Below are positions 13,539-53,100 of a stretch of 64,000 nucleotides of DNA, in pieces. The position numbers and the translations under genes were made by a program. Source of the DNA: a virus. The stretch lies in the IMG/VR virus record IMGVR_UViG_3300047157_000171; one strand, given 5' to 3'. Every line of letters starts with the position of its first letter. The first letter of the stretch is position 1. A model generated the notes under the pieces. It was not told where the DNA came from. It was given only the letters and a program-made list of their open reading frames with translations, and did not search any database.

Positions 13539-14945
13539 ATGAAAAACAGGTTAACTTTAGTAACGGTTGCGACTCATAAGACGCATGAGTTAGATAGGTT
13601 TATTGAGTCCGCTAATTATCACGGATATGACTATGTTATATTAGGATTAGGGATGGAATGGACCGGTGGTGTTGCCGATAATGGTCGGTTAGTATTCCCC
13701 GGTGGAGGAATGAAAGTGAATCTTCTAAAAGATTATTTATCCACATATGTGGGGTCGAATAGTGATGTTATACTTTTTACAGATTCTTACGATGTTGTAT
13801 TCAACGAAAAACCCGATGAGTTATTAAGTAGATGGAACGGTAATGTATTATTTACTGCGGAAAAAACTTGTTGGCCTGACAGGGATTTGGAAGAAGAATA
13901 TCCAAACTCACCTTATGGTTATAAATATTTAAATAGTGGTGGTTTTATTGCTACAGTTGGTGACCTAATTAATCTAACGGAGACTAAGTGTATGGACCAC
14001 GACGATGACCAACTATATTACACACTAAAGTTTTTAAATGGTGATAAGATTAATTTGGATTATAATTTAGATATATTTCAAACTCTTAATCAGTCTATTG
14101 ACGATGTTGAAATACATAATGGTAGAGTATATAATAAAGTGACTAAAACGTATCCTATTGTTATTCACGCTAATGGAGGTGTTGGTCCAAGAACTTATTT
14201 AAACAAATTATATAACGATATGAGACAACCAGACCCTAAGTTAAAACAGTTAAATGGTGATGAAAGAGTGTGTTTACAAATGTTATTTGATAAGAAACAT
14301 ACGAATCCATCAATTATGGTTGAAAGTCTTTCTTACTTAACCTATGATAAAAGATTGATTGATTTATCGTTTTATAATAATGACAAAGAAAATCAATGGG
14401 CGATTGAGAACTACATTAAAAATAATGGAGATAAATACAACTCAATCACACAGGTTTATGATGAAAGTAAAGGGGTTTATGAGTTAAGAGAAATGTCGTT
14501 TAAGGAGTCTACAGGATATGATGGTGATTATGTATTACATAACGATTCATCATTTATTATAAAAAACAAGGATACAATTCAGTTATTAATGTCTGAGGGT
14601 AAGGATATAATCTCACCGATGATTAATACTGAACAAACGTTTAACTCTAATTTTTGGGGTGGTGTTTCAGACGATGGGTATTATTTAGAAAGTTATGACT
14701 ATCACGATATTAGAACGTACAATAAAAAAGGAACTTTTGTTGTTCCATTTATTAGTGGTGTGATAATGTTCAGTAAAGAAATCTTAAAGACTGATTTATT
14801 TTCAACTATGTTTAGTGATTTAGATAAAGAGATACTAAATTACTACAATGAGGACCATATGGTTGTGTTAGCTAATACTATCAGAGATAAGAATCTGTTT
14901 ATGTATATAACCAATAAAAGATATTACGGAAAATTCTTTAATTAA
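13539..14945 (+). CDS. PLOD/LH3-like protein: collagen glycosyltransferase domain + accessory domain, no hydroxylase domain
   Basis: GT motifs LVTVAT, LGLGMEWTGG, GGGMKV, LFTDSYDV, AEKTCWP, YLNSGGFI, DDDQLYYT, IFQTLN, IHANG; accessory motifs IISPM, SNFWGG, DGYY..SYDY, VPFISG, FMYITN..YG. Confidence 0.85.
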   Translation: MKNRLTLVTVATHKTHELDRFIESANYHGYDYVILGLGMEWTGGVADNGRLVFPGGGMKVNLLKDYLSTYVGSNSDVILFTDSYDVVFNEKPDELLSRWNGNVLFTAEKTCWPDRDLEEEYPNSPYGYKYLNSGGFIATVGDLINLTETKCMDHDDDQLYYTLKFLNGDKINLDYNLDIFQTLNQSIDDVEIHNGRVYNKVTKTYPIVIHANGGVGPRTYLNKLYNDMRQPDPKLKQLNGDERVCLQMLFDKKHTNPSIMVESLSYLTYDKRLIDLSFYNNDKENQWAIENYIKNNGDKYNSITQVYDESKGVYELREMSFKESTGYDGDYVLHNDSSFIIKNKDTIQLLMSEGKDIISPMINTEQTFNSNFWGGVSDDGYYLESYDYHDIRTYNKKGTFVVPFISGVIMFSKEILKTDLFSTMFSDLDKEILNYYNEDHMVVLANTIRDKNLFMYITNKRYYGKFFN

Positions 14946-27804: not shown

Positions 27805-27832
27805 AAAGGGAGGGGGTTTCCCCCTCCTTTTA
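27805..27832 (+). terminator. Intrinsic terminator
   Basis: aaagggagggg-gttt-cccctcctttt. Confidence 0.75.
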
Positions 27833-27890
27833 TTAACTTATATAAAAATAAAACCTCGGAAACGAGGAGTGTATAAAAAAACAAAGAATA

Positions 27891-29321
27891 ATGACACAAT
27901 ACCAACAATTAGCAGGTCTAATCGCAGGAAAGTTAAATTCGATAATTACGAAAGTTAACGTTAACACTGGTGATGTAGACGCTATCCAAGGAGGTTCATT
28001 AGATTCTAGATACTATACAGAGACAGAAGTTGATACATTCATCAGTAACTCCACTGCGACCACATTAAATTTTAATGCGGACAATGGAGTTTTTACGTTA
28101 ACAAAAGGAGACGGTTCTACAATCACAGTTGATTTAGACGGTAGGTTTACAGATAACGTTCATGCTGATGCAATGAACCAAGGAGTTGCTACTACAGATA
28201 CACCAAATTTTGTTGGTGTGCAGGTAGGGACATTAAATGTATCTGAATTGACAACGGACTTAGTTCCAGACACTGATTCAGCATTAGATTTAGGTGAAAC
28301 TGACAAACAATATAACGATTTATATTTATCGGGTCAGATTTACCAATCAGGTGTACCGATTCAATCGGGTGAAGCGAAACCTTTAGTTTATCATGAAAAC
28401 TTTACAGGTGACGGAACAACAACTGAATTTACAGTGTCTAAAACATTAACTTCGTTAATTATGACGGATATTAATGGTTTAGTTCAGGAAAAGGGTGAAG
28501 ATTTCACACATACAGATTATTCGAAAACTATAACATTTGCAAATGCACCACAATCGGGTGAAGTTGTACAGATAACTTATTTCTATGGTGGGTCAAAACC
28601 TATCATGAAGTATGAGACATTTACTGCTAACGGTACTAGTGATAGTATTACAGTAAGTGATTCGTTATCACAGGTTGTTTATGTTGAGATTAATGGTTTA
28701 GTACAACTTAAAGGTGATAACTACAACACAACAGGTAGTTTAATCGAATTTGAGGGTACTCCAACATCAGGTTCTGAAATCGCAGTACTTTACTACAACA
28801 CAGGTGACTCATCAGTATCGGGAACATCTAATAAACTTGCTAAATTTGGGGTTGACGGACTTTCAGTTGTCGACTCATTAATTAGCGAATCAGGAAATAC
28901 CGTTTCAATCACAGGAAACTTATTTGTTGGTGGTGATACTACCACAGTAAATTCAACAGAAGTTGAAATTGCTGATAAGGCAATCGTATTAGGAGCAGGA
29001 GCACAGTCTTCTGAACTTGCTGCGGCACCATCAGGGATAAAAATAGGTGATGAAGATTCTCCATTAGCATCTATTTTATATAATGGAAGTGTATGGAATT
29101 TTGACGGAGGTATCGGTTCTTCTACTGTAATTAATAAATCACAATCAATAACTTTCTCAGGAGACGTTAGTGGTTCTGGTACGATTACAAATTTAGGGGA
29201 TATTGAAATTACAAATATGGACTTTAATACATCGGCGTTAAGAACAGAAATGGACGACTACATCGGTACGTATATACAATTCCGTAATGATTTAAACACG
29301 GGATTAAACTCGTTAATATAA
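27891..29321 (+). CDS. Tail-fibre-like protein with two tandem beta domains
   Basis: Twice F(T)gdGTxxxFTV..NGLVQxKGxD(F/Y)..IxFxxxPxSGxx(V/I)xxxY; STEVEIADKAIVL motif typical of fibre proteins. Confidence 0.65.
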   Translation: MTQYQQLAGLIAGKLNSIITKVNVNTGDVDAIQGGSLDSRYYTETEVDTFISNSTATTLNFNADNGVFTLTKGDGSTITVDLDGRFTDNVHADAMNQGVATTDTPNFVGVQVGTLNVSELTTDLVPDTDSALDLGETDKQYNDLYLSGQIYQSGVPIQSGEAKPLVYHENFTGDGTTTEFTVSKTLTSLIMTDINGLVQEKGEDFTHTDYSKTITFANAPQSGEVVQITYFYGGSKPIMKYETFTANGTSDSITVSDSLSQVVYVEINGLVQLKGDNYNTTGSLIEFEGTPTSGSEIAVLYYNTGDSSVSGTSNKLAKFGVDGLSVVDSLISESGNTVSITGNLFVGGDTTTVNSTEVEIADKAIVLGAGAQSSELAAAPSGIKIGDEDSPLASILYNGSVWNFDGGIGSSTVINKSQSITFSGDVSGSGTITNLGDIEITNMDFNTSALRTEMDDYIGTYIQFRNDLNTGLNSLI

Positions 29322-29386
29322 AATGGTTGAGTTATCAACTACGTTTGGAAACAAACAAATAAATAAAATTAATAAACATTAAAAAA

Positions 29387-32300
29387 ATGGCATTAAGACA
29401 ATTAGGATTATTCCAACTTAATACGAACCCAGGAACACAAGAAATTGATTTAGGTACTACCGCTAATTTTCTTGATGAAATATTCGTTGATTCCATATCT
29501 GCAAACACCTATTTAGGTGACGGGTCTGGACTTACAATCGACGGTATCGATTCATTAGTAGATAGTCTTTCAATTGAAACTTCTGCAAGAACAGGGGCTG
29601 ACGCATCGTTAGCAACAAAAATTTCTACAGATGTTCAATCGGCAATCGACAACTTAGTAGATGGTGCACCAAGTGCGTTAGATACTTTAGTTGAGTTAGC
29701 ATCCAAAATCGGTGAAGGTTCTATTAGTGAAGCGAACATTGTTGCTGAGATTAACTCAGTAGGTGTACGTGTAACTAACGAAGCGGCAACAAGATTGTCG
29801 GCGGATGGTTCGTTGGCGACTTTGATTGGACAAGTTTCAACGGGTGCGTCTTCAAACTTAGCGTCTGAGATTCTACAAACTGGTAATGAAGTTAATTCGT
29901 TAACCACTAGAATTTCATCAGAAGAATCTGTTAGAGCAACACAAGTAACATCATTAGCTAATGAGATTACAGGTGAAGTTACTGCAGATTTAAATTCTGT
30001 TGATACAAGAATTACAGGTGTTGAGGGAGATTTAACTTCAGTAGAGACAAGACTGTCAACTGAAGAGTCTACTATGGTTGTTACCGTAAATAGTTTAGGT
30101 ACCGTAGTCGACGGAGACATATCGTCTGTAGTTACTAAGATAGGGGATGAAGAATCTGCTAGATTAGGGGCTGATAGTTCATTAGCGACATTAATTTCTA
30201 CGGAAGTAGTTAATAGAGCAAGTGAAGATAACACATTAGACGGTAAAATTACCACAGAGGCATCATCAAGAGTTGTTGCTGATAATTCTTTAGGTAATAG
30301 AATTGATACGTTAGAAAATAACCCGTATGACGATTCATCAATCAACACAAGAGTTGGTGGTGTCGAGTCAAGTGCGAGTTCTTTAGGGGCAAGAATTTCA
30401 TCTGAAGAAGTGGTTAGATTATCTAAGGATAATTCTATCGCAACAATAGCGGGACAAAATACTTCAAGTATCAATACGGCATCGACATCATTAACATCTA
30501 GAATTTCTATTGAAGAAAATGCTAGATTAACAGGTGTTAATTCTGTAAATGATAAAGTAGGTGTTGAAGCGTCAAGTAGAGTTGTAAAGGATGATTCATT
30601 AGATGCTAAAATAGATTCAGAAATATCAACACTTAAATTAGATGTTGAACAGAACGAATCAGATATTAGTGGTGAAGAAACAATAAGAATTCAGAAAGAT
30701 AACTCATTAGATAGTAAGATATCAACTGAAGTTGTTACTTTAGAGGCTAAAGACACCTCTTTAGCAACTAGAATAGGTGTTGAAGAAGGTGCAAGAGCAT
30801 CGTCTGACTCAGCATTAAGTAATGAGATTTCGGTTCAAGCATCAATGAGACAATCAGCGGATACGGCAATTTCAAGTCAATTAATATCAGATATTTCTGT
30901 ATTAGTTGATGCTGATGGTATTTTATCATCTGACATTGCTACTGAAGAATCTTTAAGATATTCGGCGGATGATTCATTAACAACTAGAGTTAGTAGTGTT
31001 GAATCAGAAGTTTCATCGAATAAAGCATCTACAGATACTAGAGTTTTAACGGTTGAAGGTCAAATAGGTGGTATCGATGTTGATATTACAGGTTTAACTT
31101 CAGGAGTTACTAGTTTAGATAGTAAAATTGATTCAGAAATTTCTTCTGAGGTCGCTGCAAGAAATTCAGCAATCGTTGTCGCTAAAGACGAAATCATTAA
31201 CGGTGCTGGTGACGCTTACAATACATTAAGTGAGTTACAAACTGCTTTAGAAGGTAACGACGGTGATATAACTACTATATTAACGGCACAAGGTTCTATT
31301 AATATTAGAATATCAACTGAAGAGTCTACTAGATTTTTAAAGGATAGTATATTAGAATCTGAAATTGATGGTAATAATAATTCGTTAGAAACTAGAATTT
31401 CTACTGAAGAAGTAGCAAGAGCAAACGGAGATTCTACATTAGGAACTTCATTAAACTCTGAAATTTCTTCAAGAGAATCAGCAGATTCATCACTTACGAT
31501 TAGAATATCGACTGAAGAAGCGGCAAGACAATCAGCAGTTACTGCGATTAACGAATCGGCTTACGATGATACATCTATCAATACAAGAGTTGGTGGTGTT
31601 GAATCAGATTTAACTTCTGAAATTAGTTCAGAGGCTTCATCAAGAGTGTTAGGTGATAATTCACTAAACACTAAGATTGGTTCAGTATCTACGGCATTAG
31701 CGTCAGAGATAGGTACAACAAACGGTGAAATCACATCATTAAACACAAGAGTTTCTAACGAAGAGAGTAATACTACGATAATAGAAAGTTCTTTAGTGGG
31801 TGTTGATACATCATTACATAGTAGAATTTCTTCTGAAGAAGTTACTAGAAGTTTAGCAGTAAGTTCATTACATGTTAAATCGGGTAACATCACGGGAGAT
31901 GTGACTTCTATAGCAAATAGAATACAATCTGAAGAGTCTACAAGACTATCAAGTGATAACATATTAACAGGTTCAGTTGGTTCAATCAATACGAGAGTTG
32001 CAACTGAAGAAGGTAAGTCGACATCATTAACAACGAGAGTTGGTAATGTAGAAAGTGATTTAACTTCAGAAGTTAATTCGGTTGACACAAGAATTGATAA
32101 TATTGAGGCGGCTGCTTACGATGATTCATCTATCAATACAAGAATTGGTGGTGTTGAATCAGACTTAACAACGGCTGAAGGTTCTTTAGAAACAAAAATA
32201 ACTGCAGAGGAGAGTTCAAGAGTATTAGGTGATTCATCACTTACTACTGTAATTAGTACTCTACAATCGGACTTAAATACTGAAATTGCATCTACAAATA

Positions 32301-35300
32301 CGGAGATGACATCTTTAGATACGAGATTATCTACGATTGAATTGGATGACGAAACTGTTGAGTCTTCATTAGAAACTAAAATTGGTGGTGTATCTGCTGA
32401 TTTAGCGTCTGAGGTTGGAGTAAGAGGTACGGCTGACACTTCATTAACGAATAGAATTGCTAGTGAAGAAACAAACAGAGTTTCTGCGGATTCATCTTTA
32501 GCTCTTTTAATCGGTGGTAACGCATCTGATATTAGTTCACTTAACGAATTATCGGGAGTGTCAATAACAGGTGATGTATTAAAAGTATCAGGTTCAAACC
32601 AAGAGTTTACTGTTGATTTGTCACAGTTTAACGACAATACAGACAATTATATAACAGGAGCGGCACTTTCAGGTGATGTATTAACATTATCAAGAGTATC
32701 AGGTTCTGTAACGGTAGATTTAGGTCAATATCAAACCTCATCAGAGGTGGCATCACAAATAGCAACGGCAATTACAGGTTACGCTACTGAGAGTTATGTT
32801 AATAGTGCAGTGGCACCATTAGCAGTAACAACGGCAGTATCTGCGGCTGACGCTTCATTAAATACTAAGATAGATTCTTTAGACTCAAGTTTAGATTCAG
32901 AGATTTCATCTAGAATTGAAAGTGAAGATTATGTTATCGGTGCTGCGATGTCTAATGACACATTAAAATTAACAAGAGCGAAAGGTGGTGTAGTATCAGT
33001 AGACCTGTCACAATTTATAGATGACACTGACACAGATAACTATATTACAGGAGCTGCGATATCAGGTGATATACTAACATTAAGTAGACAAAACGGAGAC
33101 GTTACGGTTAACTTAGGTCAGTATCAAACTTCTTCAGAAGTTGCATCACAGATTACTGCGGGTCTTGTAGGTTACGCTACTGAATCATATGTTGGTTCGG
33201 CAGTTTCACCTAAAGCGAATAAAACATATGTTGATTCACAAGACGCATCATTAGCGACTAGAATAGATTCAATTGATACGACAATCGCATCACACAATGA
33301 ATTAGACGGAACAAGTTTCGCAGCTAACATACTTACAGTTTCAGGTTCTGAGGCTGACTACTCAGTAGATTTAAGTTCATTAGCAACAGACGTAAATGTT
33401 TCTTCAGGTTCATACAATTCAACAACAGGTACGTTAACATTAACGAAATCTGACGGTGGAACTGTTGCGGTAAGTAACTTCTATGTAGATGTAAACGGAG
33501 ATAACTTTATCACGGGAGCAAGTGTAGTAGGTCAAAACTTAATCTTATCAAGACAAGGGTTAAGTGATATTACGGTATCTTTAGCTGGTTTTGTAACATC
33601 AGGTGAATTAACAACGGCAATTTCAGACTTCAAGTCAAGTTCAGCAATCGCAACTGATATATCATCAGCGGTGGCTACTGAAGCAGGAATCAGAAGTTCG
33701 GCTGACAACTCATTAGCAGTTGCCATATCAGCGGTACAATCAGATTTCGATTCAATACCTGAAGATGAAAATGATTATATTTCATCAGCGGCAATTGTAA
33801 GTAACGATTTAGTTATTACAAGAACTGACGGTGGGACAGTAACAGTTAGTTTAGCACAATTTATGGATGACACTAATACGGATAACTTCGTAACAGGTGC
33901 GTCTTTAGCGGGTGATACATTAACATTAACGAGAGACTCAGGTAACTCTATCACAGTTAACTTAGGTCAATATCAAACTTCTTCGGAAGTTGGTGGACAA
34001 ATAACATCAGCATTAGCGGGTTACGCTACTGAGAGTTATGTTGGTGGTGTAATTGCACCGTTAGCGGTAGCATCGGCAGTATCTACGGCAGATTCATCAT
34101 TGAACACTAAGATAGACTCTTTAGAATCAAGTTTAAATTCTGAGGTCTCGTCAAGAATAGCAACCGAAGATTATTTAGTCGGAGCTACAATGTCTAACGA
34201 CACATTAAAATTAACAAGAAACTTAGGTGGTATTGTAACAGTTGACTTAGGTCAATTTAAAGACAATACTGACAACTTCCTAACAGGAGCTTCTTTATCG
34301 GGTGATTTACTTACTCTAACAAGAAACTCAGGTGGTTCATTATCTGTTAACTTAGGACAATATCAAACATCGTCTGAAGTGGCATCACAGATAACCTCAG
34401 CAATTGCTAATTACGCTACTACATCATATGTTGATACTGCTGATACTTCATTGGCAAGTAAAATAACATCTGTAGACACAAGATTCGGTGGTTTACCATC
34501 TGAAGATTATGTAACAGGAGCGGTTATGTCTAACGACACATTAAAATTAACAAGAGCACAAGGTGGTGTTGTATCAGTAGACTTAAGTAGATATACTACG
34601 GCTTCTGAGTTAACATCGGCTTTATCTCCATACGCAACCTCAGCGGTTACTTCTACACAGATTTCATCAGGAATCCAAACAGAAACTAACAGAGCGGTTG
34701 GTAAAGAGAACTCATTAAATACAAGAATCGGTGATGTATCGACGGCTTTAGGAACTGAGATTGGAACAACAAATAGTGAAGTTACTTCATTACATACGAG
34801 AGTTGGTTCAGTATCAGCGGCAGCGTCGACGAATACTACGAATATAGGTTCAGTATCAACACTAACAGGAACATTAAGTTCAGATATCTCTACATTAGAG
34901 GCGTCTGGTTATGATGATTCATCTTTAGAGACAAGAATCTCAACAGAGGAATCGACAAGACTTGTTAAGGATAATTCATTAAATACTAAAGTTGGTTCAG
35001 TATCTACGGCAATTGCTAACGAGATTAATTCAACGAATGGTGACATCACATCATTAAACACGAGAGTGGGTAATGAAGAAAGTACGAGAAGTACTAAAGA
35101 CAGTTCATTAGCAACTGCTTTATCTGCGGAAACCGCAGCAAGAGTAGCTGGTGATAGTAGTTTAGGTTCACGTATTGATGGTGTAAATGAATTAGACGGG
35201 TTAGTATTCTCATCTAACGTTTTAACGGTAGGTGGTTCTGAAAGTGACTTCTCTGTAGATTTAGGAGTGTTAGCTTCTGATGTTACAGTAACAGGTGGTA

Positions 35301-36220
35301 CATATAACTCAGGAACACAAACGTTAAACTTAACTAAGAGTAATAATGATACAATCGCTATATCAGGATTCGCAATTGATACGGATACTGACAATTTTGC
35401 TGATTCAGTGTCATTCAATTCAACGAATGGTGTTTTAACTATTGGTAGAACAGGAACATTAGCTGACTTAAATGTTGATTTAGATGGTAGATACTTAGTA
35501 GATACCGTAGATAACAACAACTATGTAGATAGTGCAAGTTTCAATACTACTAACGGTGTCTTAACAATAGGAATGTCAGGTTCTTTAGCTGACATTAATG
35601 TTGACTTAGACGGAAGATTCACAGATAATGGTTACGCAGACGCAATGAACCAACATGTAAAAACTAACTCAGCGGTAACGTTTAGTACGGTTAATACAGG
35701 TCAGGGAGCGACTGAAGTATATTTAATGAATCAAAATGTTAGAACATCTGACACGGTAACATTCAATCAAGTTAACGCTAGTATTGGTGATATCGATGAA
35801 ATCAGAATTGATACTACAACGTTAACAAGTTCATTAGGTGTCTTATCTATAAACACTGATGTGGAAATCACAGGAGAATTAAGAGCAACAAGTAAGTCGT
35901 TCTTAATCGACCATCCTACTCAACCTAACATGATGTTACAATATGGTAACTTAGAGGGACCTGAGCATGGAGTCTACATTAGAGGTAAAGTAGGTGCTGA
36001 CGGTATGATTGAATTACCAGAATATTGGACTGAGTTAGTACATGAAGATTCTATAACAGTACAATTAACTGCTATTGGAGCACCAACAACACACTATGTT
36101 AAGTCTATTGAAGACAACAAAGTAGAAGTTGGTTCTGAAAGTGGTATAGTAAATGCTTTCTACACGATAAACGCTGAGAGAAAGGATGTTTATAAATTAA
36201 AAGTTGAATTTCCAGCTTAA
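29387..36220 (+). CDS. Giant tail fibre (2277 aa): coiled-coil shaft, repeated beta modules, C-terminal chaperone-like domain
   Basis: DGAPSALDTLVEL motif; 18-residue coiled-coil repeats; repeated DNYITGAxLSGDxLTLxR..VTVxLGQYQTSSEV modules; C-terminal KSFLIDHP..LEGPE.GVYIRG..LPEYW..SITVQLT..AERKDV. Confidence 0.85.
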   Translation: MALRQLGLFQLNTNPGTQEIDLGTTANFLDEIFVDSISANTYLGDGSGLTIDGIDSLVDSLSIETSARTGADASLATKISTDVQSAIDNLVDGAPSALDTLVELASKIGEGSISEANIVAEINSVGVRVTNEAATRLSADGSLATLIGQVSTGASSNLASEILQTGNEVNSLTTRISSEESVRATQVTSLANEITGEVTADLNSVDTRITGVEGDLTSVETRLSTEESTMVVTVNSLGTVVDGDISSVVTKIGDEESARLGADSSLATLISTEVVNRASEDNTLDGKITTEASSRVVADNSLGNRIDTLENNPYDDSSINTRVGGVESSASSLGARISSEEVVRLSKDNSIATIAGQNTSSINTASTSLTSRISIEENARLTGVNSVNDKVGVEASSRVVKDDSLDAKIDSEISTLKLDVEQNESDISGEETIRIQKDNSLDSKISTEVVTLEAKDTSLATRIGVEEGARASSDSALSNEISVQASMRQSADTAISSQLISDISVLVDADGILSSDIATEESLRYSADDSLTTRVSSVESEVSSNKASTDTRVLTVEGQIGGIDVDITGLTSGVTSLDSKIDSEISSEVAARNSAIVVAKDEIINGAGDAYNTLSELQTALEGNDGDITTILTAQGSINIRISTEESTRFLKDSILESEIDGNNNSLETRISTEEVARANGDSTLGTSLNSEISSRESADSSLTIRISTEEAARQSAVTAINESAYDDTSINTRVGGVESDLTSEISSEASSRVLGDNSLNTKIGSVSTALASEIGTTNGEITSLNTRVSNEESNTTIIESSLVGVDTSLHSRISSEEVTRSLAVSSLHVKSGNITGDVTSIANRIQSEESTRLSSDNILTGSVGSINTRVATEEGKSTSLTTRVGNVESDLTSEVNSVDTRIDNIEAAAYDDSSINTRIGGVESDLTTAEGSLETKITAEESSRVLGDSSLTTVISTLQSDLNTEIASTNTEMTSLDTRLSTIELDDETVESSLETKIGGVSADLASEVGVRGTADTSLTNRIASEETNRVSADSSLALLIGGNASDISSLNELSGVSITGDVLKVSGSNQEFTVDLSQFNDNTDNYITGAALSGDVLTLSRVSGSVTVDLGQYQTSSEVASQIATAITGYATESYVNSAVAPLAVTTAVSAADASLNTKIDSLDSSLDSEISSRIESEDYVIGAAMSNDTLKLTRAKGGVVSVDLSQFIDDTDTDNYITGAAISGDILTLSRQNGDVTVNLGQYQTSSEVASQITAGLVGYATESYVGSAVSPKANKTYVDSQDASLATRIDSIDTTIASHNELDGTSFAANILTVSGSEADYSVDLSSLATDVNVSSGSYNSTTGTLTLTKSDGGTVAVSNFYVDVNGDNFITGASVVGQNLILSRQGLSDITVSLAGFVTSGELTTAISDFKSSSAIATDISSAVATEAGIRSSADNSLAVAISAVQSDFDSIPEDENDYISSAAIVSNDLVITRTDGGTVTVSLAQFMDDTNTDNFVTGASLAGDTLTLTRDSGNSITVNLGQYQTSSEVGGQITSALAGYATESYVGGVIAPLAVASAVSTADSSLNTKIDSLESSLNSEVSSRIATEDYLVGATMSNDTLKLTRNLGGIVTVDLGQFKDNTDNFLTGASLSGDLLTLTRNSGGSLSVNLGQYQTSSEVASQITSAIANYATTSYVDTADTSLASKITSVDTRFGGLPSEDYVTGAVMSNDTLKLTRAQGGVVSVDLSRYTTASELTSALSPYATSAVTSTQISSGIQTETNRAVGKENSLNTRIGDVSTALGTEIGTTNSEVTSLHTRVGSVSAAASTNTTNIGSVSTLTGTLSSDISTLEASGYDDSSLETRISTEESTRLVKDNSLNTKVGSVSTAIANEINSTNGDITSLNTRVGNEESTRSTKDSSLATALSAETAARVAGDSSLGSRIDGVNELDGLVFSSNVLTVGGSESDFSVDLGVLASDVTVTGGTYNSGTQTLNLTKSNNDTIAISGFAIDTDTDNFADSVSFNSTNGVLTIGRTGTLADLNVDLDGRYLVDTVDNNNYVDSASFNTTNGVLTIGMSGSLADINVDLDGRFTDNGYADAMNQHVKTNSAVTFSTVNTGQGATEVYLMNQNVRTSDTVTFNQVNASIGDIDEIRIDTTTLTSSLGVLSINTDVEITGELRATSKSFLIDHPTQPNMMLQYGNLEGPEHGVYIRGKVGADGMIELPEYWTELVHEDSITVQLTAIGAPTTHYVKSIEDNKVEVGSESGIVNAFYTINAERKDVYKLKVEFPA

Positions 36221-36268: not shown

Positions 36269-39088
36269 ATGGCTAAGAACATAATTATCACACCGAATTT
36301 AACAGGGACAGATAATCCAAACATAGCTATCACCAATGGAAATGAAGAGATTGTCATCGGCTTAAACGCCGGTGGCTCTCTTATCTTCCAAGACGGTGGT
36401 GGAACTACGTTATTGGAACTGGACTCTAATGGTAACGCCACAGTAAAGAACCAAAACCTTAAAACTAATCAGTTTACAGTAAACTCACAAGACGCTTTCG
36501 ACGAGTCCCTTTATGTAGGTCCATCAGGACACTTAAAAGGACAGAAAGGTATCAAAGGAAACATAGGACCCACCGGAGCTCAAGGAGCGAAAGGAGTAAT
36601 TGGGGCAAAAGGTTTGAAAGGATACATTGGTTCCGTAGGGGTGGTAGGTGCCCAAGGTGCTCAGGGTGCTCAAGGACAAGTAGGTGCAACTGCACCAAAA
36701 GGTCCAAAAGGCCCAATAGGAAATGCAGGTCCAACAGGACCCGTAGGACCAAAAGGAGGACAAGGTGCTCAAGGACCTAAAGGTTACGTAGGTAATCAAG
36801 GGAGTAAAGGAGTAACAGGACCTAAAGGTCTAAAAGGAGGAGTAGGTCCACAAGGACCACAAGGTGCTTCACCTCAAGGACCACAAGGACCGCAAGGACC
36901 TCAAGGACCACAAGGACCGCAAGGACCTAAAGGTTATAAAGGGATAAAAGGTGCGACAGGTAATGTCGGACCAACAGGACAGAAAGGTATCGCGGGTACT
37001 AAAGGTAACGAAGGACCTATAGGGGACAGAGGTATCACAGGACTTAAAGGATACAAAGGTATTACAGGACCTAAGGGTCAGACGGGTAATAAAGGACCCA
37101 AAGGTAATGCCGGTGACCAAGGACCTACCGCAGCAAAAGGTGCGTTAGGTAATAAAGGTACTAAAGGTAACAAAGGTGTCATTGGCTCGAAAGGGTATAA
37201 GGGCAATAGAGGACCACAAGGACCAAAAGGTTATGAACCTAAAGGACCTAAAGGATACCAAGGACCTAAAGGGTACAAAGGTATCAAAGGTAACAAAGGT
37301 ATTAAAGGAAACACAGGACCACAAGGACCGAGAGGTATACAAGGTGGCGGCGGTGACTTAGGACCAACAGGTGTTGCAGGTATCAACGGACCAAAAGGAC
37401 CAAGAGGTGTTCAAGGACCTGTCGGTACTCAAGGACCAAAAGGTTATAAAGGGGTCAAAGGTAATAAAGGACCACAAGGTACTAAAGGACCTCAGGGAGA
37501 CCAAGGAGGGCCAGGTGCTAAAGGTGTTATTGGACCTCAAGGTAATAAAGGTATAAAAGGTAACGCAGGACCAAAAGGTTATATTGGTTCTTCTATTAAA
37601 GGTAATAGAGGAGGACAAGGACCAACAGGTTATAAAGGTATCAAAGGTAATAAAGGTGTTAAGGGTATCAAAGGAAACTTTGGACCTCAAGGACCTACAG
37701 GACCTACAGGAAACCAAGGACCGACAGGTGCTAAAGGAACTGCTGGAGCCACAGGAACTAAAGGTAACCGAGGAGGTACTGGCGGACCGGGTGACAAAGG
37801 TGTTACAGGACCGGGAGGACCAACAGGTGGAAAAGGTATCAAAGGTAACATAGGTGGACAAGGACCAAGAGGAGGTCAAGGTGCACAAGGTTATCAAGGA
37901 GCGAGAGGTACTACAGGACTTAAAGGAAATAAAGGTATCAAAGGTTATCAAGGTGATAAAGGTCAAACAGGTGGAAAAGGTATTAAAGGTAATATCGGAC
38001 CAGGTGGACCAACAGGGCCAGGAGGTGACAGAGGACCAAACGGTGATGCAGGTGGAAAAGGTTACAGAGGTGACCAAGGACCTACAGGACAGAAAGGTTA
38101 TAAAGGAGCCCCAGGTGGAAAAGGTATCAAAGGTAACATAGGTGGTCAAGGAGCGAGAGGTCCACAAGGAGGACAAGGTTCTCAAGGAGCACGAGGTACT
38201 ACAGGACCAAAAGGACCTAAAGGTTATAAAGGTAATGCTGGTGCCAAAGGTTATCAAGGTTCTAAAGGTATCAAAGGTAATAAAGGAACTAAGGGTTATA
38301 CGGGTAATCAAGGACCACAAGGTGACAAAGGTTACGTAGGTGACCCAGGAGCTCAAGGACCCGCAGGTGGAAACAGTAGTACCAAAGGTGGTAGAGGACC
38401 ACAAGGTACTTCACCAAAAGGTTATATTGGAGGACAAGGACCACAAGGTAACAAAGGTGTCAGAGGACAACAAGGACCGGGTGGTGACTTATATCTTGTA
38501 TCAACATTCCCAGATGCTCCTGAAGGACCAACAGGACAAAGAGGACCAACAGGACCGAATGGTACATCTAAAGGACCAAAAGGATATGCAGGACCACAAG
38601 GTACTCAAGGACCGAAAGGTGTAAAAGGACCGTCATATTTTGGACCAAAAGGTAAGAGAGGACCTAAAGGTTCAGGAGGACCAAAAGGACCAAAAGGATA
38701 CGGACCATTTGGTCAGGGACCAAAAGGATATAAAGGACCAAAAGGACCTACAGGTAACTCATCTGATATGAGGTTAAAGGAAAACATCAAAGAATTAGTT
38801 GGTGGTATTGAAAAAATATCAAAACTTAGAGGTGTTAAATTTGATTGGATTAAAGAATCTGTTCATAATGTGGATGGAGTTAAAGGTGGAGATGCTGGTT
38901 TTATCGCACAAGAAGTTAACGAGGTTTTACCTGAGTTGACTAATATAATGAATCAAGAGAATGGTACAATGCAAGTCAACTATGCTAAGATGACTTCGGT
39001 ATTAATCTCAGCACTTAGAGAACAGAGGGAAATCGTTAAAGAATATACTGATAAACTTGAAATAATTAAATTAAATCGTTCGAAATAA
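36269..39088 (+). CDS. Collagen-like fibre protein 1 with C-terminal S74 intramolecular chaperone
   Basis: About 740 aa of Gly-X-Y (aa ~91-830), then SSDMRLKENI..LRGVKFDW..AGFIAQEV..LPEL..VNY. Confidence 0.92.
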   Translation: MAKNIIITPNLTGTDNPNIAITNGNEEIVIGLNAGGSLIFQDGGGTTLLELDSNGNATVKNQNLKTNQFTVNSQDAFDESLYVGPSGHLKGQKGIKGNIGPTGAQGAKGVIGAKGLKGYIGSVGVVGAQGAQGAQGQVGATAPKGPKGPIGNAGPTGPVGPKGGQGAQGPKGYVGNQGSKGVTGPKGLKGGVGPQGPQGASPQGPQGPQGPQGPQGPQGPKGYKGIKGATGNVGPTGQKGIAGTKGNEGPIGDRGITGLKGYKGITGPKGQTGNKGPKGNAGDQGPTAAKGALGNKGTKGNKGVIGSKGYKGNRGPQGPKGYEPKGPKGYQGPKGYKGIKGNKGIKGNTGPQGPRGIQGGGGDLGPTGVAGINGPKGPRGVQGPVGTQGPKGYKGVKGNKGPQGTKGPQGDQGGPGAKGVIGPQGNKGIKGNAGPKGYIGSSIKGNRGGQGPTGYKGIKGNKGVKGIKGNFGPQGPTGPTGNQGPTGAKGTAGATGTKGNRGGTGGPGDKGVTGPGGPTGGKGIKGNIGGQGPRGGQGAQGYQGARGTTGLKGNKGIKGYQGDKGQTGGKGIKGNIGPGGPTGPGGDRGPNGDAGGKGYRGDQGPTGQKGYKGAPGGKGIKGNIGGQGARGPQGGQGSQGARGTTGPKGPKGYKGNAGAKGYQGSKGIKGNKGTKGYTGNQGPQGDKGYVGDPGAQGPAGGNSSTKGGRGPQGTSPKGYIGGQGPQGNKGVRGQQGPGGDLYLVSTFPDAPEGPTGQRGPTGPNGTSKGPKGYAGPQGTQGPKGVKGPSYFGPKGKRGPKGSGGPKGPKGYGPFGQGPKGYKGPKGPTGNSSDMRLKENIKELVGGIEKISKLRGVKFDWIKESVHNVDGVKGGDAGFIAQEVNEVLPELTNIMNQENGTMQVNYAKMTSVLISALREQREIVKEYTDKLEIIKLNRSK

Positions 39089-42021
39089 TGGCACTACAAA
39101 AAGGAAACAAAGGGATACAGATTATTCCAAATAGAGTAGGTACGAATGAACCTAAAATAGAACTTTACCAAGGTTCTACTACGTATACACTAGAAGTTGA
39201 AGACAACACTAATGATGTTGTTATATTTTTAAATGGTACGGAGGTCGCTCGTATGAAATCATCAGGTGATGAGAGATTTCAAATTGTTGGAGACCTAATA
39301 ATTGACGGAGATTTAAGGGACTCAAGTGGTAACGTAATCGTAACTCAATCAGGTATTTACAACGGAACATTCCAAGGTACTACAGGTGACAGAGGACCTC
39401 AGGGACCTCAAGGTAACCAAGGGCCTAAGGGAACAAAAGGACCGAAAGGTAACTTTGGACCTACAGGTCAGAAAGGAACTAAAGGAGTTGCTGGTAATAA
39501 AGGTAATAAAGGTACTAAAGGTAATAATTCACCTAAAGGTGTTATTGGAGATAACGGACCAAGAGGAAATGACGGACCGCAAGGACCGCAAGGACCTCAA
39601 GGTGATAAGGGTATTAAAGGTAACTTAGGTGATAAAGGTTTAAAAGGTAACCGTGGATATCAAGGTGGAAACGGAGACAAAGGACCTATCGGAAACAAAG
39701 GTAACAAAGGTGCTAAAGGTATCAAAGGTAACGTTGGTAACAAAGGTATCAAAGGTATTAAAGGTAATATCGGAGGTAACGGAGATTTAGGACCAACAGG
39801 TACTCAAGGGGTTAAAGGTGTTTTAGGTGCTAAGGGTTATACCGGAGCACAAGGACCACAAGGGCCTCAGGGACCTAAAGGTTATCAACCAACAGGGCCA
39901 ATTGGGCCAAAAGGTAATAGAGGATATCAAGGGGCTATTGGTGACAAAGGTTACCAAGGTGGACAAGGTGTCTCACCAAAAGGACCAAAAGGTGGACCTG
40001 GTGACCAAGGACCAAAAGGACCTCAGGGTAATAAAGGACCGACAGGACCAAAAGGTTATAAAGGTGTCGGAGGTGGACAATCATCTTTGGGTGTAGGTGT
40101 TATTACAGGACCTACAGGACAGAAAGGTATCACAGGGCCAGTTGGACCTACAGGACCGCAAGGACCGATTGGAACACAAGGACCTCAAGGACCTAAGGGT
40201 TATAGAGGTGCTACCGGTCAGAAGGGTTATGCAATCAATGACGACCCTTCAACTCCGGGATTAACTGCTCCTAAAGGACCAAAAGGACCACAAGGTTACA
40301 TTGGTAATACAGGACCGAAAGGTGCTACCGGTGATGGTGGAGATAGAGGACCTCAGGGAAATACAGGTAATGCTGGTTCAAAAGGTCAGATAGGACCACA
40401 AGGTGCTAAAGGTTATAAAGGTAATATTGGAGGACCTGGTGATAAAGGTTATACAGGTGGAAAAGGACCTAACGCGGCTGCGGGACCAAAAGGACCTAAA
40501 GGTAATGTTGGAAACAAAGGTACAACAGGACCAGGTGGACCACAAGGACCTACAGGACCAATTGGAACTAAAGGTAATATTGGTAATAAAGGTGTTACAG
40601 GACTTAAAGGAAATAAAGGTATCAAAGGACAAAAAGGGGCATCCCCTCAGGGACCTAAGGGTTACAGAGGAGCACAAGGACCACAAGGTTCTCAAGGAGC
40701 ACGAGGTACTACAGGACCAAAAGGACCTAAAGGTTATAAAGGTAACAAAGGTGTTAAGGGTTATATAGGTACCAAAGGAAACAAGGGTGTTAAAGGATAC
40801 CAACCAGTTGGACCACAAGGACCTATAGGGACTAAAGGTATTAGAGGTGCTACGGGACCACAAGGGCCTACAGGACCACAAGGAAACCAAGGACCACAAG
40901 GTGGTCAGGGACCAAAAGGATACATAGGACCTTCATATAAAGGACCTACAGGTTATAAAGGTGTCGTATCAAGTGTCGGAGACAGAGGTGCTACGGGACC
41001 AAAAGGGCCTAAAGGTTATAAAGGTAATGCAGGACCAAAAGGATATAAGGGTATCAAAGGAAACAAAGGTGTTAAAGGATATCAACCACAAGGGCCAACA
41101 GGACAAAAAGGTTATACAGGTGCAAAAGGACAGAAAGGTATAACAGGACCAGGCGGACCTACAGGACCTACAGGTTCTAATGGTACTAAAGGTAACAGAG
41201 GTGGTTTAGGACCTCAGGGACCAAAAGGTATTAAAGGTAACAGAGGTAATACAGGACCAAAAGGACCGAAAGGAAATAAAGGTACTAAAGGTATTAAAGG
41301 ATACAAAGGTAATAAGGGTATTAAAGGTAACTTAGGTGATAAAGGTACTAAAGGTAACAGAGGTAACTTTGGACCAAACGCAGGACCAAGAGGACCACAA
41401 GGACCACAAGGACCAAGAGGATATCAAGGTAACTTTGGACCACAAGGACCAGTAGGTGCTAAAGGTGGTTCAGGTGCTGGTGGTGGTACAGGTCAAAAAG
41501 GTGGTACTTCCGCGGGTCTTAAAGGACCTAAAGGGTATGCTGGACCTATATCTTCTTTTGGAGGCTCTGGTGGACCACAAGGTGACCCAGGACCTATAGG
41601 TACTAAAGGTAATAGAGGACCAACAGGACAAAAAGGAGCATCCGGCGGTGGCGGCGGTGGTCCAACTAGTGGTGGTGGTTCATCATCACTTCTTTCAGAT
41701 AAGAGACTTAAATTAGATATTAATTTAATATCGAATCCTTTACAAAAAATCCAAGAACTGATACCTGTCGAATTTGATTGGACAGATAAAGGTTTAGAAG
41801 ATGGACTTGTACGTGGAGCCTACGGGAAACACGATATTGGTTTTGTTGCTCAAAACGCTAAAAAAGTAATTCCAAGTTCAGTTAACACTGAAGATACGGG
41901 TTACTTAACATTGTCATACTCTAGAGTTGTTCCATTAATCATTGAAGCGATTAAGGAAGAACAAAAAAACATTGATATGTTAGAGGAAGAAATAAATAAA
42001 CTTAGACTAAACAACAATTAA
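39088..42021 (+). CDS. Collagen-like fibre protein 2 with C-terminal S74 intramolecular chaperone
   Basis: About 755 aa of Gly-X-Y, then [38 protein letters not shown]. Confidence 0.92.
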
Positions 42022-42023
42022 TC

Positions 42024-44870
42024 ATGGCTAAGAATATATTAATCACACCAAATAGAACAGGAACAGAGTCTCCTGAGATATTGTTAGTAAATAACGGTAC
42101 TGTAGACTCAATCTTTACAATCGGTGAGAATCTTCCATTACTTATCGGTGAAGACGGAGCTCCGGCAGCTAGTTTTAGTTCAAACGGGTTTTTAACACCT
42201 AACGGATTTAAAATTACGGGGTCGTTAAAAGTAAGAAATGGGAGTGGAACATCCGTTACTGTATTAGATAATACGGGAACATGGACAGGTTCATTCACAG
42301 GTATAAAAGGGAATCAAGGACCGCAAGGATATAAAGGTCAAAAAGGACCACAGGGTAATACGGGTGACTTTGGACCACAAGGTGACAGAGGTTACAAAGG
42401 TGGTTTTGGAGACAAAGGTTATCAAGGTGGACCTGGTGATAAAGGATATCAAGGTAACGTAGGACCAAAAGGACCAAAAGGTGTTATTGGAGCTAAAGGT
42501 TTCAAAGGACTGAAAGGTAATTTAGGGACTCAGGGACCCGGTGGACCAATAGGTCCTCAGGGAGCCCAAGGACCTACAGGACCAAAAGGTTATATTGGTA
42601 ACCAAGGTGGTATAGGACCTCAGGGTAATGTAGGACCAACAGGTGACGTAGGATATACGGGACCAAAAGGTGTTGTAGGACCAGGTGGACCGACAGGACC
42701 GAGAGGTTATCAAGGACCACAAGGTACTTCACCAAAAGGTATCAAAGGTACAACAGGTGATAAAGGTGTAACAGGTGCTAAAGGTATCAAAGGTAACAAA
42801 GGTGTAACAGGTGGAAGAGGACCTCAGGGTCAGACTAACACAACCAAAGGACCTACAGGTTATAAAGGTGTCAGAGGTACTAAAGGACAGAAAGGTATTA
42901 TTGGTTCGACTTCACAACAAGGAGACCAAGGATATCAAGGAGGTCAAGGACCGGGTGGTGATAAAGGAACCATAGGTGCACAAGGTACTACAGGTGATAG
43001 AGGTGTTACAGGACCAAAGGGACTTAAAGGTAACGTTGGTGCTAGAGGATACCAAGGAGGCCAAGGAGGTCAAGGTGCTCAAGGTGGTAATACTAAAGGT
43101 AATAAGGGTATTACAGGACCTAAGGGTTACAAAGGTGGAAAAGGACCTGCAGTTGCTAATGGACCGAAAGGACCAATAGGTGGACCGGGTAATAAGGGTG
43201 TCTCTAATATTAGAGGAGCCCAAGGACCACAAGGACCAAAAGGTTATATCGGTATTAAAGGTGTCAAAGGTGGTATCGGAGATAAAGGTATTACAGGACC
43301 AGGTGGACCTACAGGACCACAAGGAAACCAAGGACCACAAGGTGAAAGAGGTGGTACGGGTACTTCTTATACGGGTAACGTTGGAGACAAAGGTTATAGA
43401 GGAGCACAAGGATACCAAGGACCACAAGGTTCTCAAGGACCACAAGGTGGTAACACTAAAGGGTATAAAGGTAATATTGGTTACAAAGGAATCAAAGGAC
43501 CACAAGGACCAACAGGTCAAAAAGGAGCTACAGGTAATATAGGTGGCGGTGGTGATAAAGGTTACATCGGTGTTAAAGGAAACAAAGGTGTTAAAGGTTA
43601 TCAACCACAAGGACCAGGCGGACCTACAGGACCGGGAGGACCAACAGGACAGAAAGGTATCACAGGACCAACAGGTCAAAAAGGTGGTCAAGGAAACCAA
43701 GGTGCTAAAGGTAATGTTGGGAATAAAGGACCAAAAGGTTATCAACCACAAGGACCAAAAGGTATCAAAGGTATCAAAGGAAACAAAGGTACTAAAGGTA
43801 ATAAAGGTTATAAGGGGATATCTACCGTTTCATCTTTAACTAAAGGTACTAAAGGTAATAAAGGATATAGACATTCTACAGGACCAAAAGGTTATCAACC
43901 ACAAGGACCCGTTGGAGACAAAGGTTATCAAGGTGGACCGGGTGATGGTGGACCTACAGGACCGGGAGGACCAACAGGTGGAAAAGGTATTAAAGGTAAC
44001 ATCGGTGGTCAAGGTGCTAAAGGTAATGCTGGACCTACAGGATACCAAGGAGCACAAGGAGCAAAAGGTGTTAAAGGTAATAACGTTTCTACTAAAGGAC
44101 CAAAAGGTAACGTTGGGGCAAAAGGAGCACAAGGACCTACAGGACCAAAAGGTTATACAGGGTCTCTTGGAAATGTGGGTGACTCACATAGAGGACCAAA
44201 TGGACCTACAGGACCGCAAGGACCGATTGGAACGACAGGTGCTACAGGAGATAAAGGTTACGCTGGATATACTCATTGGGTTAATTCAGGTAGTCCAGCA
44301 CCGGCAGGACCTAAAGGTTTTAAAGGAAACAAAGGTGTTAAAGGATATATAGGACCAAAGGGAATTAAAGGTAATGCTGGAGGCAAAGGTTATCCTTCGT
44401 CTATATTCGGACCAAAGGGAAATAAAGGACCTAATGGATTAGCTGCGACTCAAGGACCTATAGGTGATGCTGGAGCAAGTTCAGGAAACACTAAAGGTAA
44501 TAGAGGACCAAATGGACCACAAGGTTATAGAGGACCAAAAGGGTTTAAAGGAAATGCGGGACCAGCTTCTGATAGAAGAGCTAAGACTAATGTTGAGTTA
44601 ATTACTGATTCGTTAGAAAAAGTATCTAAGATTAGAGGTGTTGAATTCCTATGGAAATCTGATTATAAACCTAAAACTTTAGAAACACCAACGGATATTG
44701 GGGTTATTGCACAAGAGATAAAAGAAGTCTTACCTGAATTAATTATTGAAGGTAATGACGGATTCTTAAGAGTTAATTATCCACAAATCACGTCTTTATT
44801 AGTCAATGCGTTTAACGAACAAAATAGTAAGTTAAATATGATTAAGAAAGATATCGATTCGATGTTATAA
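42024..44870 (+). CDS. Collagen-like fibre protein 3 with C-terminal S74 intramolecular chaperone
   Basis: About 755 aa of Gly-X-Y, then ASDRRAKTNV..IRGVEFLW..IGVIAQEI..LPEL..VNY. Confidence 0.92.
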   Translation: MAKNILITPNRTGTESPEILLVNNGTVDSIFTIGENLPLLIGEDGAPAASFSSNGFLTPNGFKITGSLKVRNGSGTSVTVLDNTGTWTGSFTGIKGNQGPQGYKGQKGPQGNTGDFGPQGDRGYKGGFGDKGYQGGPGDKGYQGNVGPKGPKGVIGAKGFKGLKGNLGTQGPGGPIGPQGAQGPTGPKGYIGNQGGIGPQGNVGPTGDVGYTGPKGVVGPGGPTGPRGYQGPQGTSPKGIKGTTGDKGVTGAKGIKGNKGVTGGRGPQGQTNTTKGPTGYKGVRGTKGQKGIIGSTSQQGDQGYQGGQGPGGDKGTIGAQGTTGDRGVTGPKGLKGNVGARGYQGGQGGQGAQGGNTKGNKGITGPKGYKGGKGPAVANGPKGPIGGPGNKGVSNIRGAQGPQGPKGYIGIKGVKGGIGDKGITGPGGPTGPQGNQGPQGERGGTGTSYTGNVGDKGYRGAQGYQGPQGSQGPQGGNTKGYKGNIGYKGIKGPQGPTGQKGATGNIGGGGDKGYIGVKGNKGVKGYQPQGPGGPTGPGGPTGQKGITGPTGQKGGQGNQGAKGNVGNKGPKGYQPQGPKGIKGIKGNKGTKGNKGYKGISTVSSLTKGTKGNKGYRHSTGPKGYQPQGPVGDKGYQGGPGDGGPTGPGGPTGGKGIKGNIGGQGAKGNAGPTGYQGAQGAKGVKGNNVSTKGPKGNVGAKGAQGPTGPKGYTGSLGNVGDSHRGPNGPTGPQGPIGTTGATGDKGYAGYTHWVNSGSPAPAGPKGFKGNKGVKGYIGPKGIKGNAGGKGYPSSIFGPKGNKGPNGLAATQGPIGDAGASSGNTKGNRGPNGPQGYRGPKGFKGNAGPASDRRAKTNVELITDSLEKVSKIRGVEFLWKSDYKPKTLETPTDIGVIAQEIKEVLPELIIEGNDGFLRVNYPQITSLLVNAFNEQNSKLNMIKKDIDSML

Positions 44871-44893: not shown

Positions 44894-44924
44894 AAAACCC
44901 TCATCATAAAGATGGGGGTTTTTT
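44894..44924 (+). terminator. Intrinsic terminator closing the fibre cluster
   Basis: aaaaccctcatc-ataaa-gatggggg followed by a T run. Confidence 0.8.
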
Positions 44925-45133: not shown

Positions 45134-46228
45134 ATGATGTTATTAAAAATGGTTAAGGAGATAATAATGGACAACCTAAATGAAGGTACATCGTCCGATT
45201 ATCAAACGCTTAGAAAAGTCTTTAAATATAATACAGAAAAGTTATATGGTTATCTACTTAAGAGAGGTGACTTAGATTCTTTCATTGATGATATAGTTAA
45301 AGATGATAGTGATGAGTCTAACGAGTTGATGAAAAATATCATACACGGTATGATATCGGATAAAGATATTGATTCGTTGTATAAATATACCTTACCGATT
45401 TTCTCTGATTTGATATTGAACCGTAATGAAATAATTATGGAATTAGGTGGTAGAGAAGATTTAGCAAAACTCTTTTACCACGATAGTAATATGTCTGAAG
45501 AGACTACAACATCAATCTTATCAGGAGAGTATGATGAACTTTTTTATAGTGGGTATAATTCAGGTAAAGATGAAATGTTTTATTACCTTAGTGATTTAAC
45601 TGAAGAAAACATGAAATTATTAAAAGATTACATGGTTGACGAGGGGTTAAATAAAGAGGTACATTATAATGGAGATAACGAAGTATTAGAAAATTTACTT
45701 AGTGAGGATGACAATATTTTAACCAAAGATTGTTTTGATGAAATCTTTAGGAGTGAAAATAATATAATAGACGCGTTGTACAGTATTGACTTATTTGAAA
45801 ATATGGAAAATAATGTTTCTAACGCTTATGATAGAGCACAGATAGCGGCCTTGGAGACTGAGTTATATAACAATTTAATGAGTTCTATTGAAGATTTCTT
45901 TGGTAGTAAGGGGGAATTTAAATATACCGAAAAGAGTGATTCATATAAACAGAAATACCCCGATAGGAGTCACACACCAACAACAACGTATGTGATAGAA
46001 ATTTCGGAACAGTTATATATTGACGTAATAAGTTGGTGGATTGAAGAAATAAGTGATGCTGGATATTCTATTAATTATTGGGGGGATTTTGAAGATGTGT
46101 TAGAAGAATATTGTAATGAACATCTTTCATATAGAGACCAATTAACATATCGATTCCCTGATTATGCTGACAGTAAACTATCTTCCGATTATATGAATGA
46201 TTCTTTCAGAGATGAATTATATTATTAA
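45134..46228 (+). CDS. Acidic hypothetical protein
   Basis: 364 aa, D/E/Y-rich; N-terminal LLKMVKEIIMDNLNEG. Confidence 0.7.
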   Translation: MMLLKMVKEIIMDNLNEGTSSDYQTLRKVFKYNTEKLYGYLLKRGDLDSFIDDIVKDDSDESNELMKNIIHGMISDKDIDSLYKYTLPIFSDLILNRNEIIMELGGREDLAKLFYHDSNMSEETTTSILSGEYDELFYSGYNSGKDEMFYYLSDLTEENMKLLKDYMVDEGLNKEVHYNGDNEVLENLLSEDDNILTKDCFDEIFRSENNIIDALYSIDLFENMENNVSNAYDRAQIAALETELYNNLMSSIEDFFGSKGEFKYTEKSDSYKQKYPDRSHTPTTTYVIEISEQLYIDVISWWIEEISDAGYSINYWGDFEDVLEEYCNEHLSYRDQLTYRFPDYADSKLSSDYMNDSFRDELYY

Positions 46229-53081: not shown

Positions 53082-53100
53082 TATTAAAAAAAGACACGAA

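Follow-up and report, generated by a model that had tools for sequence, protein, structure and literature searches.

Three tandem genes in a 64,000-nucleotide stretch of DNA from an uncultured marine phage (IMG/VR virus record IMGVR_UViG_3300047157_000171; hereafter the window) encode collagens of nearly equal length, each followed at the C terminus by a Peptidase_S74 (S74) chaperone. From their sequences, we consider it probable on balance that A, B and C, as the genes are called here in gene order, specify three separate homotrimeric rods that would fold from the C terminus, be released by S74 and act as a length-matched set, probably on the phage particle. An earlier reading of the same DNA (the original prediction) had described this anatomy and proposed that it fits either one heterotrimer or three length-matched fibres.

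Anatomy, ancestry and length matching of the trio

The elements of the trio are listed below; all coordinates in the window refer to the 64-kb sequence and the + strand.

36269..39088, + strand: gene A, 939 residues; N-terminal domain (N-domain) at residues 1-90; interrupted collagen at 91-831 with 235 triplets and 11 breaks; Peptidase_S74 from S832, with K837
39088..42021, + strand: gene B, 977 residues; N-domain at 1-96; collagen at 97-858 with 237 triplets and 14 breaks; 11-residue Gly/Ser linker; Peptidase_S74 from S870, with K875
42024..44870, + strand: gene C, 948 residues; N-domain at 1-92; collagen at 93-848 with 228 triplets and 18 breaks; Peptidase_S74 from S849, with K854
44894..44922, + strand: terminator-like hairpin (12-bp stem and T run) 3' of gene C

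A, B and C form one transcription unit, which the hairpin closes and in which, as originally described, the start of B overlaps the stop of A (TAATG at 39086-39090) and a 2-nt gap precedes the start of C at 42024. The G+C content of the three genes is 42-44% compared with ~30-38% in the rest of the window, as expected from Gly and Pro codons.

At E <= 0.01, Pfam lists only Collagen and a C-terminal Peptidase_S74 in the three proteins, and together with the open reading frames (ORFs) and the motif positions this bears out the predicted succession of N-domain, collagen and S74. The matches to Collagen (PF01391) have E values of 1e-65 to 1e-80; those to Peptidase_S74 (PF13884) cover residues 832-890 (A), 870-932 (B) and 849-906 (C) with E values of 4e-10 to 4e-15 and bit scores of 51.6, 40.2 and 56.2, all exceeding the gathering score of 22. 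The S-D-x-R-x-K motif begins at S832, S870 and S849 and is intact in each protein, again as predicted. Its Ser and Lys lie five residues apart (S832/K837, S870/K875 and S849/K854), and none of the 45 proteins in the 15 trios described below has lost this pair. In gene B of a relative from Tara (L156, 9036-9359), S-D-E-N-I-K replaces S-D-K-R-L-K, i.e. Arg is lost while Ser and Lys are retained. A profile of the three S74 domains matches the solved chaperones 6f45 (long tail fibre), 8jov (tail fibre), 7dc3 (MYRF) and 3gud (GA-1 neck appendage), the motif Ser being aligned with residue 1 of the 3gud chain.

The distance from the first Gly to the S74 Ser is 741 (A), 773 (B) and 756 (C) residues. 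Thus, the span of ~740-755 residues that had been predicted for the Gly-X-Y part is about right; however, with 11, 14 and 18 breaks of 1-14 residues each, the helix is interrupted and not continuous. In the window clade no head domain lies between helix and chaperone, in line with the original prediction: the last triplet is separated from the S74 Ser by 0 residues in A and C and by the 11-residue Gly/Ser linker in B. Two-residue breaks are often of one form, G-x-[S/Q/E]-P-x-G (GASPQG, GTSPKG, GYQPQG), which is found three times in A, five times in B and at least three times in C, as well as in clade 3 of the relatives. The N-domains share the start M-A-K-N-I-x-I-x-P-N-x-T-G-T and are modelled as all beta (pLDDT 71); this conserved N terminus shows neither an evident signal peptide nor a membrane segment.

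The trio was found in at least 15 distinct marine phage contigs, and the 15 loci analysed fall into three clades and contain all three genes together each time. These relatives are metagenomic fragments, found in a scan with a three-sequence N-domain alignment (a six-sequence alignment was too divergent) and in a second scan of viral contigs with another N-domain; CheckV estimates on clade 2 and clade 3 contigs imply genomes of ~300 kb. The clade 1 loci belong to the same phage as the window (L143, L144, L150), to a 90% relative (L156/L157, from Tara) and to a 58% relative (L145), and all have the A-B-C order and the same flanking genes, which encode proteins of 2277 and 364 residues. Clades 2 and 3 also have three tandem collagen-S74 genes, an architecture that Pfam supports in the four relatives checked (one clade 2 and three clade 3 proteins). 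The junctions between the genes are like those of the window in clade 2 (the first overlapping by a few bases, the second with a 2-nt gap) and variable in clade 3 (a 2-3-nt gap, then mostly an overlap). In one contig (L163, 4676-9998) the middle gene is split into four frames; it is intact in four contigs of equal gene coordinates and lengths, and the split is probably an assembly error in repeats.

A tree of the N-domain plus S74 gave three orthogroups common to clades 2 and 3 (support 91-99); neither this tree nor a tree of the N-domain only assigned A, B and C of the window to these orthogroups. In one of them, orthogroup Z (e.g. L159 4680-9998 and L172 8211-9998), a Cys-rich knob of 85-113 residues lies between collagen and S74, and in some clade 2 loci the Z chain has an extra non-collagen insert of 219-359 residues. 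Both Cys and the knob are absent from the window proteins.

A, B and C are three old paralogs. Their N-domains are 28-33% identical to each other and their S74 domains 29-43%; by contrast, within clade 1 the three genes are 1:1 orthologs with N-domain identities of 58-90%. Similarly, aligning the collagen parts takes 5-16 gap events between orthologs and 27-35 between paralogs. The DNA repeats shared between the genes are only 60-79% identical and the collagen parts of the paralogs are not collinear, and A, B and C were therefore not recently homogenised. Recent gene conversion as the source of their equal lengths was ruled out on the same lack of collinearity.

Among cultured phages, a DNA search found no close relative of the window, and a protein search found collagen and S74 tails only, the N-domain never being matched. 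As a single sequence, the N-domain had no matches in the viral contigs or in a set of 5.8 billion proteins; as a profile against 1.8 billion representatives it had 15 matches, mostly fragments at contig ends, and its weak multi-repeat matches in Ig-like repeat proteins were judged uninformative. In viral contigs, nearly all proteins with a domain related to the A-type S74 are fibres that lack collagen, and querying with the last 150 residues retrieved no full-length orthologs.

The numbers of triplets in the three chains of each trio were as follows.

L172, clade 3: 97, 95 and 95
L171, clade 3: 139, 140 and 131
L173, clade 3: 150, 148 and 145
L174, clade 3: 152, 148 and 148
L175, clade 3: 155, 152 and 153
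L176, clade 3: 155, 170 and 157
L177, clade 3: 165, 162 and 163
L145, clade 1: 219, 227 and 223
L156, clade 1: 228, 231 and 224
Window, clade 1: 235, 237 and 228
L167, clade 2: 290, 298 and 288
L166, clade 2: 291, 299 and 283
L168, clade 2: 290, 312 and 302
L159, clade 2: 300, 317 and 311
L165, clade 2: 302, 315 and 311

While the number of triplets differs about threefold between phages (95 to 317), the helical extents in residues agree to 0.7-3.7% within one phage in 14 of the 15 loci, the exception being L176 (10%). The pairwise correlations of the three chain lengths are r 0.996-0.998 over ten lineages. When genes were permuted between genomes, the observed within-genome range was never reached (P < 1e-5, with no correction for phylogeny), and clade 3 alone gives an exact P of 1.4e-4 for length matching. 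Moreover, the lengths stayed matched while they changed in parallel at least six times in the three orthogroups. In clades 1 and 2 residue length is better matched than triplet number, supporting that physical length is the constrained quantity. Compensating indels as a sign of a ruler within clade 1 were rejected, as the net length change was estimated to be no smaller than with random signs. The original prediction had named independent variation of helix length in related phages as the outcome that would speak against it; the opposite was seen, and its proposal of three length-matched collagens is borne out by the tight co-variation over a threefold range. Because the three rods are held to equal physical length, we suggest that they act together.

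Interruption register and composition of the proposed trimers

The strands of a collagen triple helix are staggered by one residue. Therefore, a frame-shifting insertion is harmless if all three strands carry it; one that recurs in a single strand is not accommodated, with two chains left for one slot. In residue coordinates anchored at either end, the breaks of A, B and C coincided at chance level (P 0.09-0.88), a first test that was blurred by unequal gap lengths and was rerun in triplet coordinates. There, the window had 12 coincidences in 36 comparisons with 7.2 expected, and all trios together had 215 coincident breaks with 170 expected, the excess being mainly in clades 1 and 2. This excess may be a relic of common descent, or it may reflect a real alignment constraint with hinge points partly aligned between the rods.

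The alternative raised by the original prediction is that A, B and C wind into a single a1/a2/a3 heterotrimer, in which a heterotrimeric S74 module would nucleate the helix and translational coupling would give chains in a 1:1:1 ratio. The lengths matched to ~1-4% and co-varying over a threefold range, the tight coupling of the three genes and the fact that they are always found together are all in favour of it, as is the modest excess of coincident breaks, which includes a few sites where all three chains break together, near triplets 64-66 and 112-114. However, most breaks are unmatched and shift the Gly frame: a run of 86 triplets is unbroken in A, while the same stretch has five breaks in B and seven in C. 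The best rigid alignment holds one Gly phase in all three chains over at most 33% of the rod, and even where break positions coincide the gap lengths differ (2 vs 9, 2 vs 7 and 3 vs 11 residues). Each paralog also retains its own break pattern in its orthologs, with 8-10 of 11 breaks conserved for A and 13-15 of 18 for C (P < 0.0005).

The relatives argue in the same direction. In clade 3 (L171-L177) the breaks are periodic, and the periods of the three chains are incompatible: Z is nearly continuous, Y gains one residue every 7 or 14 triplets and X gains two residues (G-A-S-P-V-G) every 13 triplets. The Cys-rich knob before S74 is present in chain Z alone, the N-domains and S74 domains of the paralogs share only 23-44% identity, and to our knowledge all solved S74 chaperones are homotrimers. 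Thus, the predicted a1/a2/a3 heterotrimer was not supported, and we consider it very unlikely; rather, the break and register evidence leads us to read the trio as three separate homotrimers.

Lysine placement and collagen-modifying enzymes

Lysine is almost exclusively in the Y position of the triplets (84 of 85 in A, 91 of 91 in B and 78 of 78 in C; 253 of 254 overall), and G-X-K makes up 34-38% of the triplets in A, B and C. Pro (in 28-32% of triplets) and Tyr (10-13%) are almost solely in X. The predicted mature chains have a net charge of +79 to +89, a pI of ~10.3 and no Cys. By contrast, the clade 3 rods are neutral, poor in Lys and rich in G-A-Q and G-P-T.

X-Lys-Gly is the site of collagen lysyl hydroxylases, and a gene for an enzyme related to animal PLOD proteins lies upstream of the trio.

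13539..14945, + strand: PLOD-type glycosyltransferase, 468 residues; GT_PLOD match with an E value of 3.6e-64, second glycosyltransferase-like domain and a match to phrog_61

Six clade 2 loci have a homolog of this glycosyltransferase (34-36% identity) 6-9 kb upstream of the trio, beside the same PcfJ-like gene. Matches to phrog_61 were found in five of five Lys-rich clade 2 contigs and in none of five Lys-poor clade 3 contigs. Each of these five clade 2 contigs has a glycosyltransferase of ~477 residues, and four of them also have a separate oxygenase-like ORF of ~220 residues at ~27-28 kb from it. In clade 3 a 483-residue ORF and the PcfJ-like gene lie too close together for the gene to fit between them, and this slot is filled only in phages with Lys-rich trios. 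A, B and C combine two features expected of a PLOD substrate, i.e. Lys in Y (X-Lys-Gly) and a co-encoded cognate GT_PLOD gene. Given this placement of Lys and the co-occurrence of the PLOD-type glycosyltransferase with Lys-rich clades, hydroxylation and glycosylation of the A, B and C rods are probable. The modification can be tested directly, since the enzymes accompany Lys-rich trios and none were found with Lys-poor ones.

Genomic setting, alternatives and known systems

Two further genes flank the trio directly.

29387-36220, directly upstream of the trio: 2277-residue protein, the last 200 residues of which match phrog_17490 and phrog_28536
45134..46228, + strand: 364-residue, mainly helical protein with homologs downstream of the trio

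A module of ~50 residues in the 2277-residue protein is 65-77% identical to a segment of collagen plus S74 fibres of 2000-4700 residues in other viral contigs (L024-L080). The window and clade 3 share the order DnaJ, methyltransferase, 483-residue ORF, PcfJ-like gene, 106-residue ORF and trio; in the corresponding syntenic gap, clade 3 lacks the gene for the 2277-residue protein and four further large ORFs (21746-36220). In all three clades, most loci encode a homolog of the 364-residue protein (22-56% identity) on one strand or the other, at most ~3 kb downstream of the trio. The AlphaFold2 model of the 364-residue protein is mainly helical (pLDDT 81), and the protein is a candidate partner of the fibres. 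As a single-sequence query it had no matches in the viral contigs. Further downstream, the window (51972-62350) encodes a radical SAM protein, a flavodoxin-like protein, a thymidylate-synthase-family protein of 348 residues, a DUF2827 protein (E 3e-119), a pyridoxal phosphate-dependent enzyme, a DNA methylase and a carbamoyltransferase-like protein, a run that may concern DNA or nucleotide modification.

In the mechanism that we propose, the ~90-residue all-beta N-domain would probably be the attachment end. The S74 domain would trimerise first and set the register, after which the Gly-X-Y stalk would zip from the C terminus towards the N terminus, and S74 would cut itself off at the Ser of S-D-x-R-x-K, leaving headless rods with a predicted length of ~200-220 nm in the window clade. 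A phage PLOD-like hydroxylase and glycosyltransferases would probably turn many lysines into glycosylated hydroxylysine, and the modified rod surface, not a terminal head, would then be the functional surface. As a set, the rods may be assembled side by side, be fixed at both ends or track one reach that is specific to the lineage. It is possible, and we propose it tentatively, that three homotrimers lying side by side or tied at both ends make one machine, a nine-chain sugar-coated fibre in which all lengths must change together.

Several points weigh against homotrimeric rods acting as a modified, length-matched set on the virion. Chains that co-assemble into a single helix classically show just such a tight length match, and coincident breaks do exceed expectation modestly (215 vs 170). 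The L176 trio is matched less well than the others (10%). A lysyl hydroxylase was not seen within the 64-kb window, and the absence of PLOD genes from Lys-poor contigs is based on metagenomic fragments and hence is no proof. The location on the virion follows from the habit of the family only, and in clades 2 and 3 the trio lies amid non-structural genes. Comparison with the PDB gave no matching fold for the N-domain model, and the 364-residue protein had no PDB, Pfam or PHROG match, i.e. neither fold was recognised. Finally, oligomeric state, cleavage and modification are read from sequence.

The same evidence for homotrimers would equally suit three functionally independent fibres that do not co-assemble and owe their equal length to common descent and a shared optimum reach, e.g. 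one set by how thick a host surface layer is. The small number of indels between orthologs shows that the similarity is in part inherited, and the 10% departure in L176 would perhaps not be tolerated by rigid co-assembly. However, a loose optimum would predict a poorer match than the 0.7-3.7% that persisted across six or more parallel length changes, and the better match of residues than of triplets in clades 1 and 2 points to physical length; we regard independent fibres as rather unlikely. Least probable of the alternatives, in our view, is that the trio is not part of the virion and is other collagen-like material produced during infection, e.g. a matrix on the cell surface or outside the cell, in which S74 would only aid folding. 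The surroundings of the clade 2 and clade 3 trios (DnaJ, methyltransferase, PcfJ-like and nucleotide-metabolism genes, with no tail module) and an N-domain without a link to a known virion socket would fit such a role. Against it, signal peptides and membrane segments are not evident at the N terminus of the trio proteins, the window trio directly follows the 2277-residue fibre-like protein that shares modules with collagen-S74 fibres, and phage S74 domains and collagen stalks are typically found in tail fibres and spikes (PMC12220804). We therefore retain three homotrimeric rods that act as a length-matched set as the favoured reading.

Known fibres and spikes with a C-terminal intramolecular chaperone include the K1F endosialidase, the L-shaped fibre pb1 of T5 and the GA-1 neck appendage (Schwarzer 2007, as cited in PMC12220804). 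The trio resembles S74 tail fibres and spikes in its C-terminal S74 domain, its Ser-x4-Lys pair, its matches to solved chaperones and the expected C-terminal trimerisation and self-release. Unlike the trio, in which S74 follows Gly-X-Y so that only collagen would remain, the known chaperones fold a beta-helical or knob-like receptor-binding tip; moreover, the trio consists of three genes in a length-locked set. Headless, polycationic and probably glycosylated rods of 200 nm suggest contact with the host without a folded receptor-binding tip.

Collagen repeats fused to an endosialidase chaperone have been reported in polinton-like viruses (PMC12220804), and these viruses and the tail fibre WLW37664.1 of the cyanophage S-8S55 resemble the trio in having collagen repeats and S74 in one fibre protein. 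By contrast with the trio, the S-8S55 fibre has ~55 contiguous triplets and ~160 non-collagen residues before S74. Downstream of the fibre gene of this Synechococcus phage (L179, OQ504983.1 23411-34101), at least five 2OG-Fe(II) oxygenase genes lie within ~6 kb, together with a tail assembly chaperone gene, which hints that fibres may be hydroxylated in isolates too. Thus, the collagen-S74 architecture is already known and both of its parts are familiar from phage fibres; the new part is three distinct rods that are length-locked over a threefold range. Neither the cultured phages nor the literature retrieved contained the length-locked tandem trio, the N-domain family or a collagen of ~750 residues directly abutting S74. 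The nine-chain fibre, if true, would be a new principle of viral fibre construction and length control.

The PLOD-family enzyme is common to the phages with Lys-rich trios, Mimivirus (L230, a lysyl hydroxylase plus glucosyltransferase) and animals (LH3/PLOD3), and in Mimivirus and the phages it is encoded by the virus alongside collagen rich in X-Lys-Gly. Unlike Mimivirus, the trio belongs to a tailed phage, the enzyme domains are on separate genes, the substrates carry S74 and the system is known here from genes alone. Together, the trio and the PLOD-like enzymes suggest that hydroxylysine on bacteriophage fibres is glycosylated as in animals.

The original prediction called S74 the analogue of a procollagen C-propeptide. 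As a functional analogy this is fair, in that a C-terminal domain selects and registers three chains, starts zipping from the C to the N terminus and is then removed; however, there is no homology, removal in the trio would be autocatalytic and not by a separate protease, and chain selection appears to be homotypic. With heterotrimeric collagens (type I, type IV and C1q) the trio shares three distinct chains of equal length (helical extents of 741, 762 and 756 residues in A, B and C) that are presumably made together. The interruptions of those collagens are largely in register between the chains, whereas those of A, B and C are out of register; an a1/a2/a3 assembly, if true, would be a collagen heterotrimer outside animals. 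In total, the trio is a natural system in which to ask how the length of a fibre is measured or selected, and how a C-terminal domain that can be cleaved off sets the register of a triple helix that is very long, poor in proline and interrupted.

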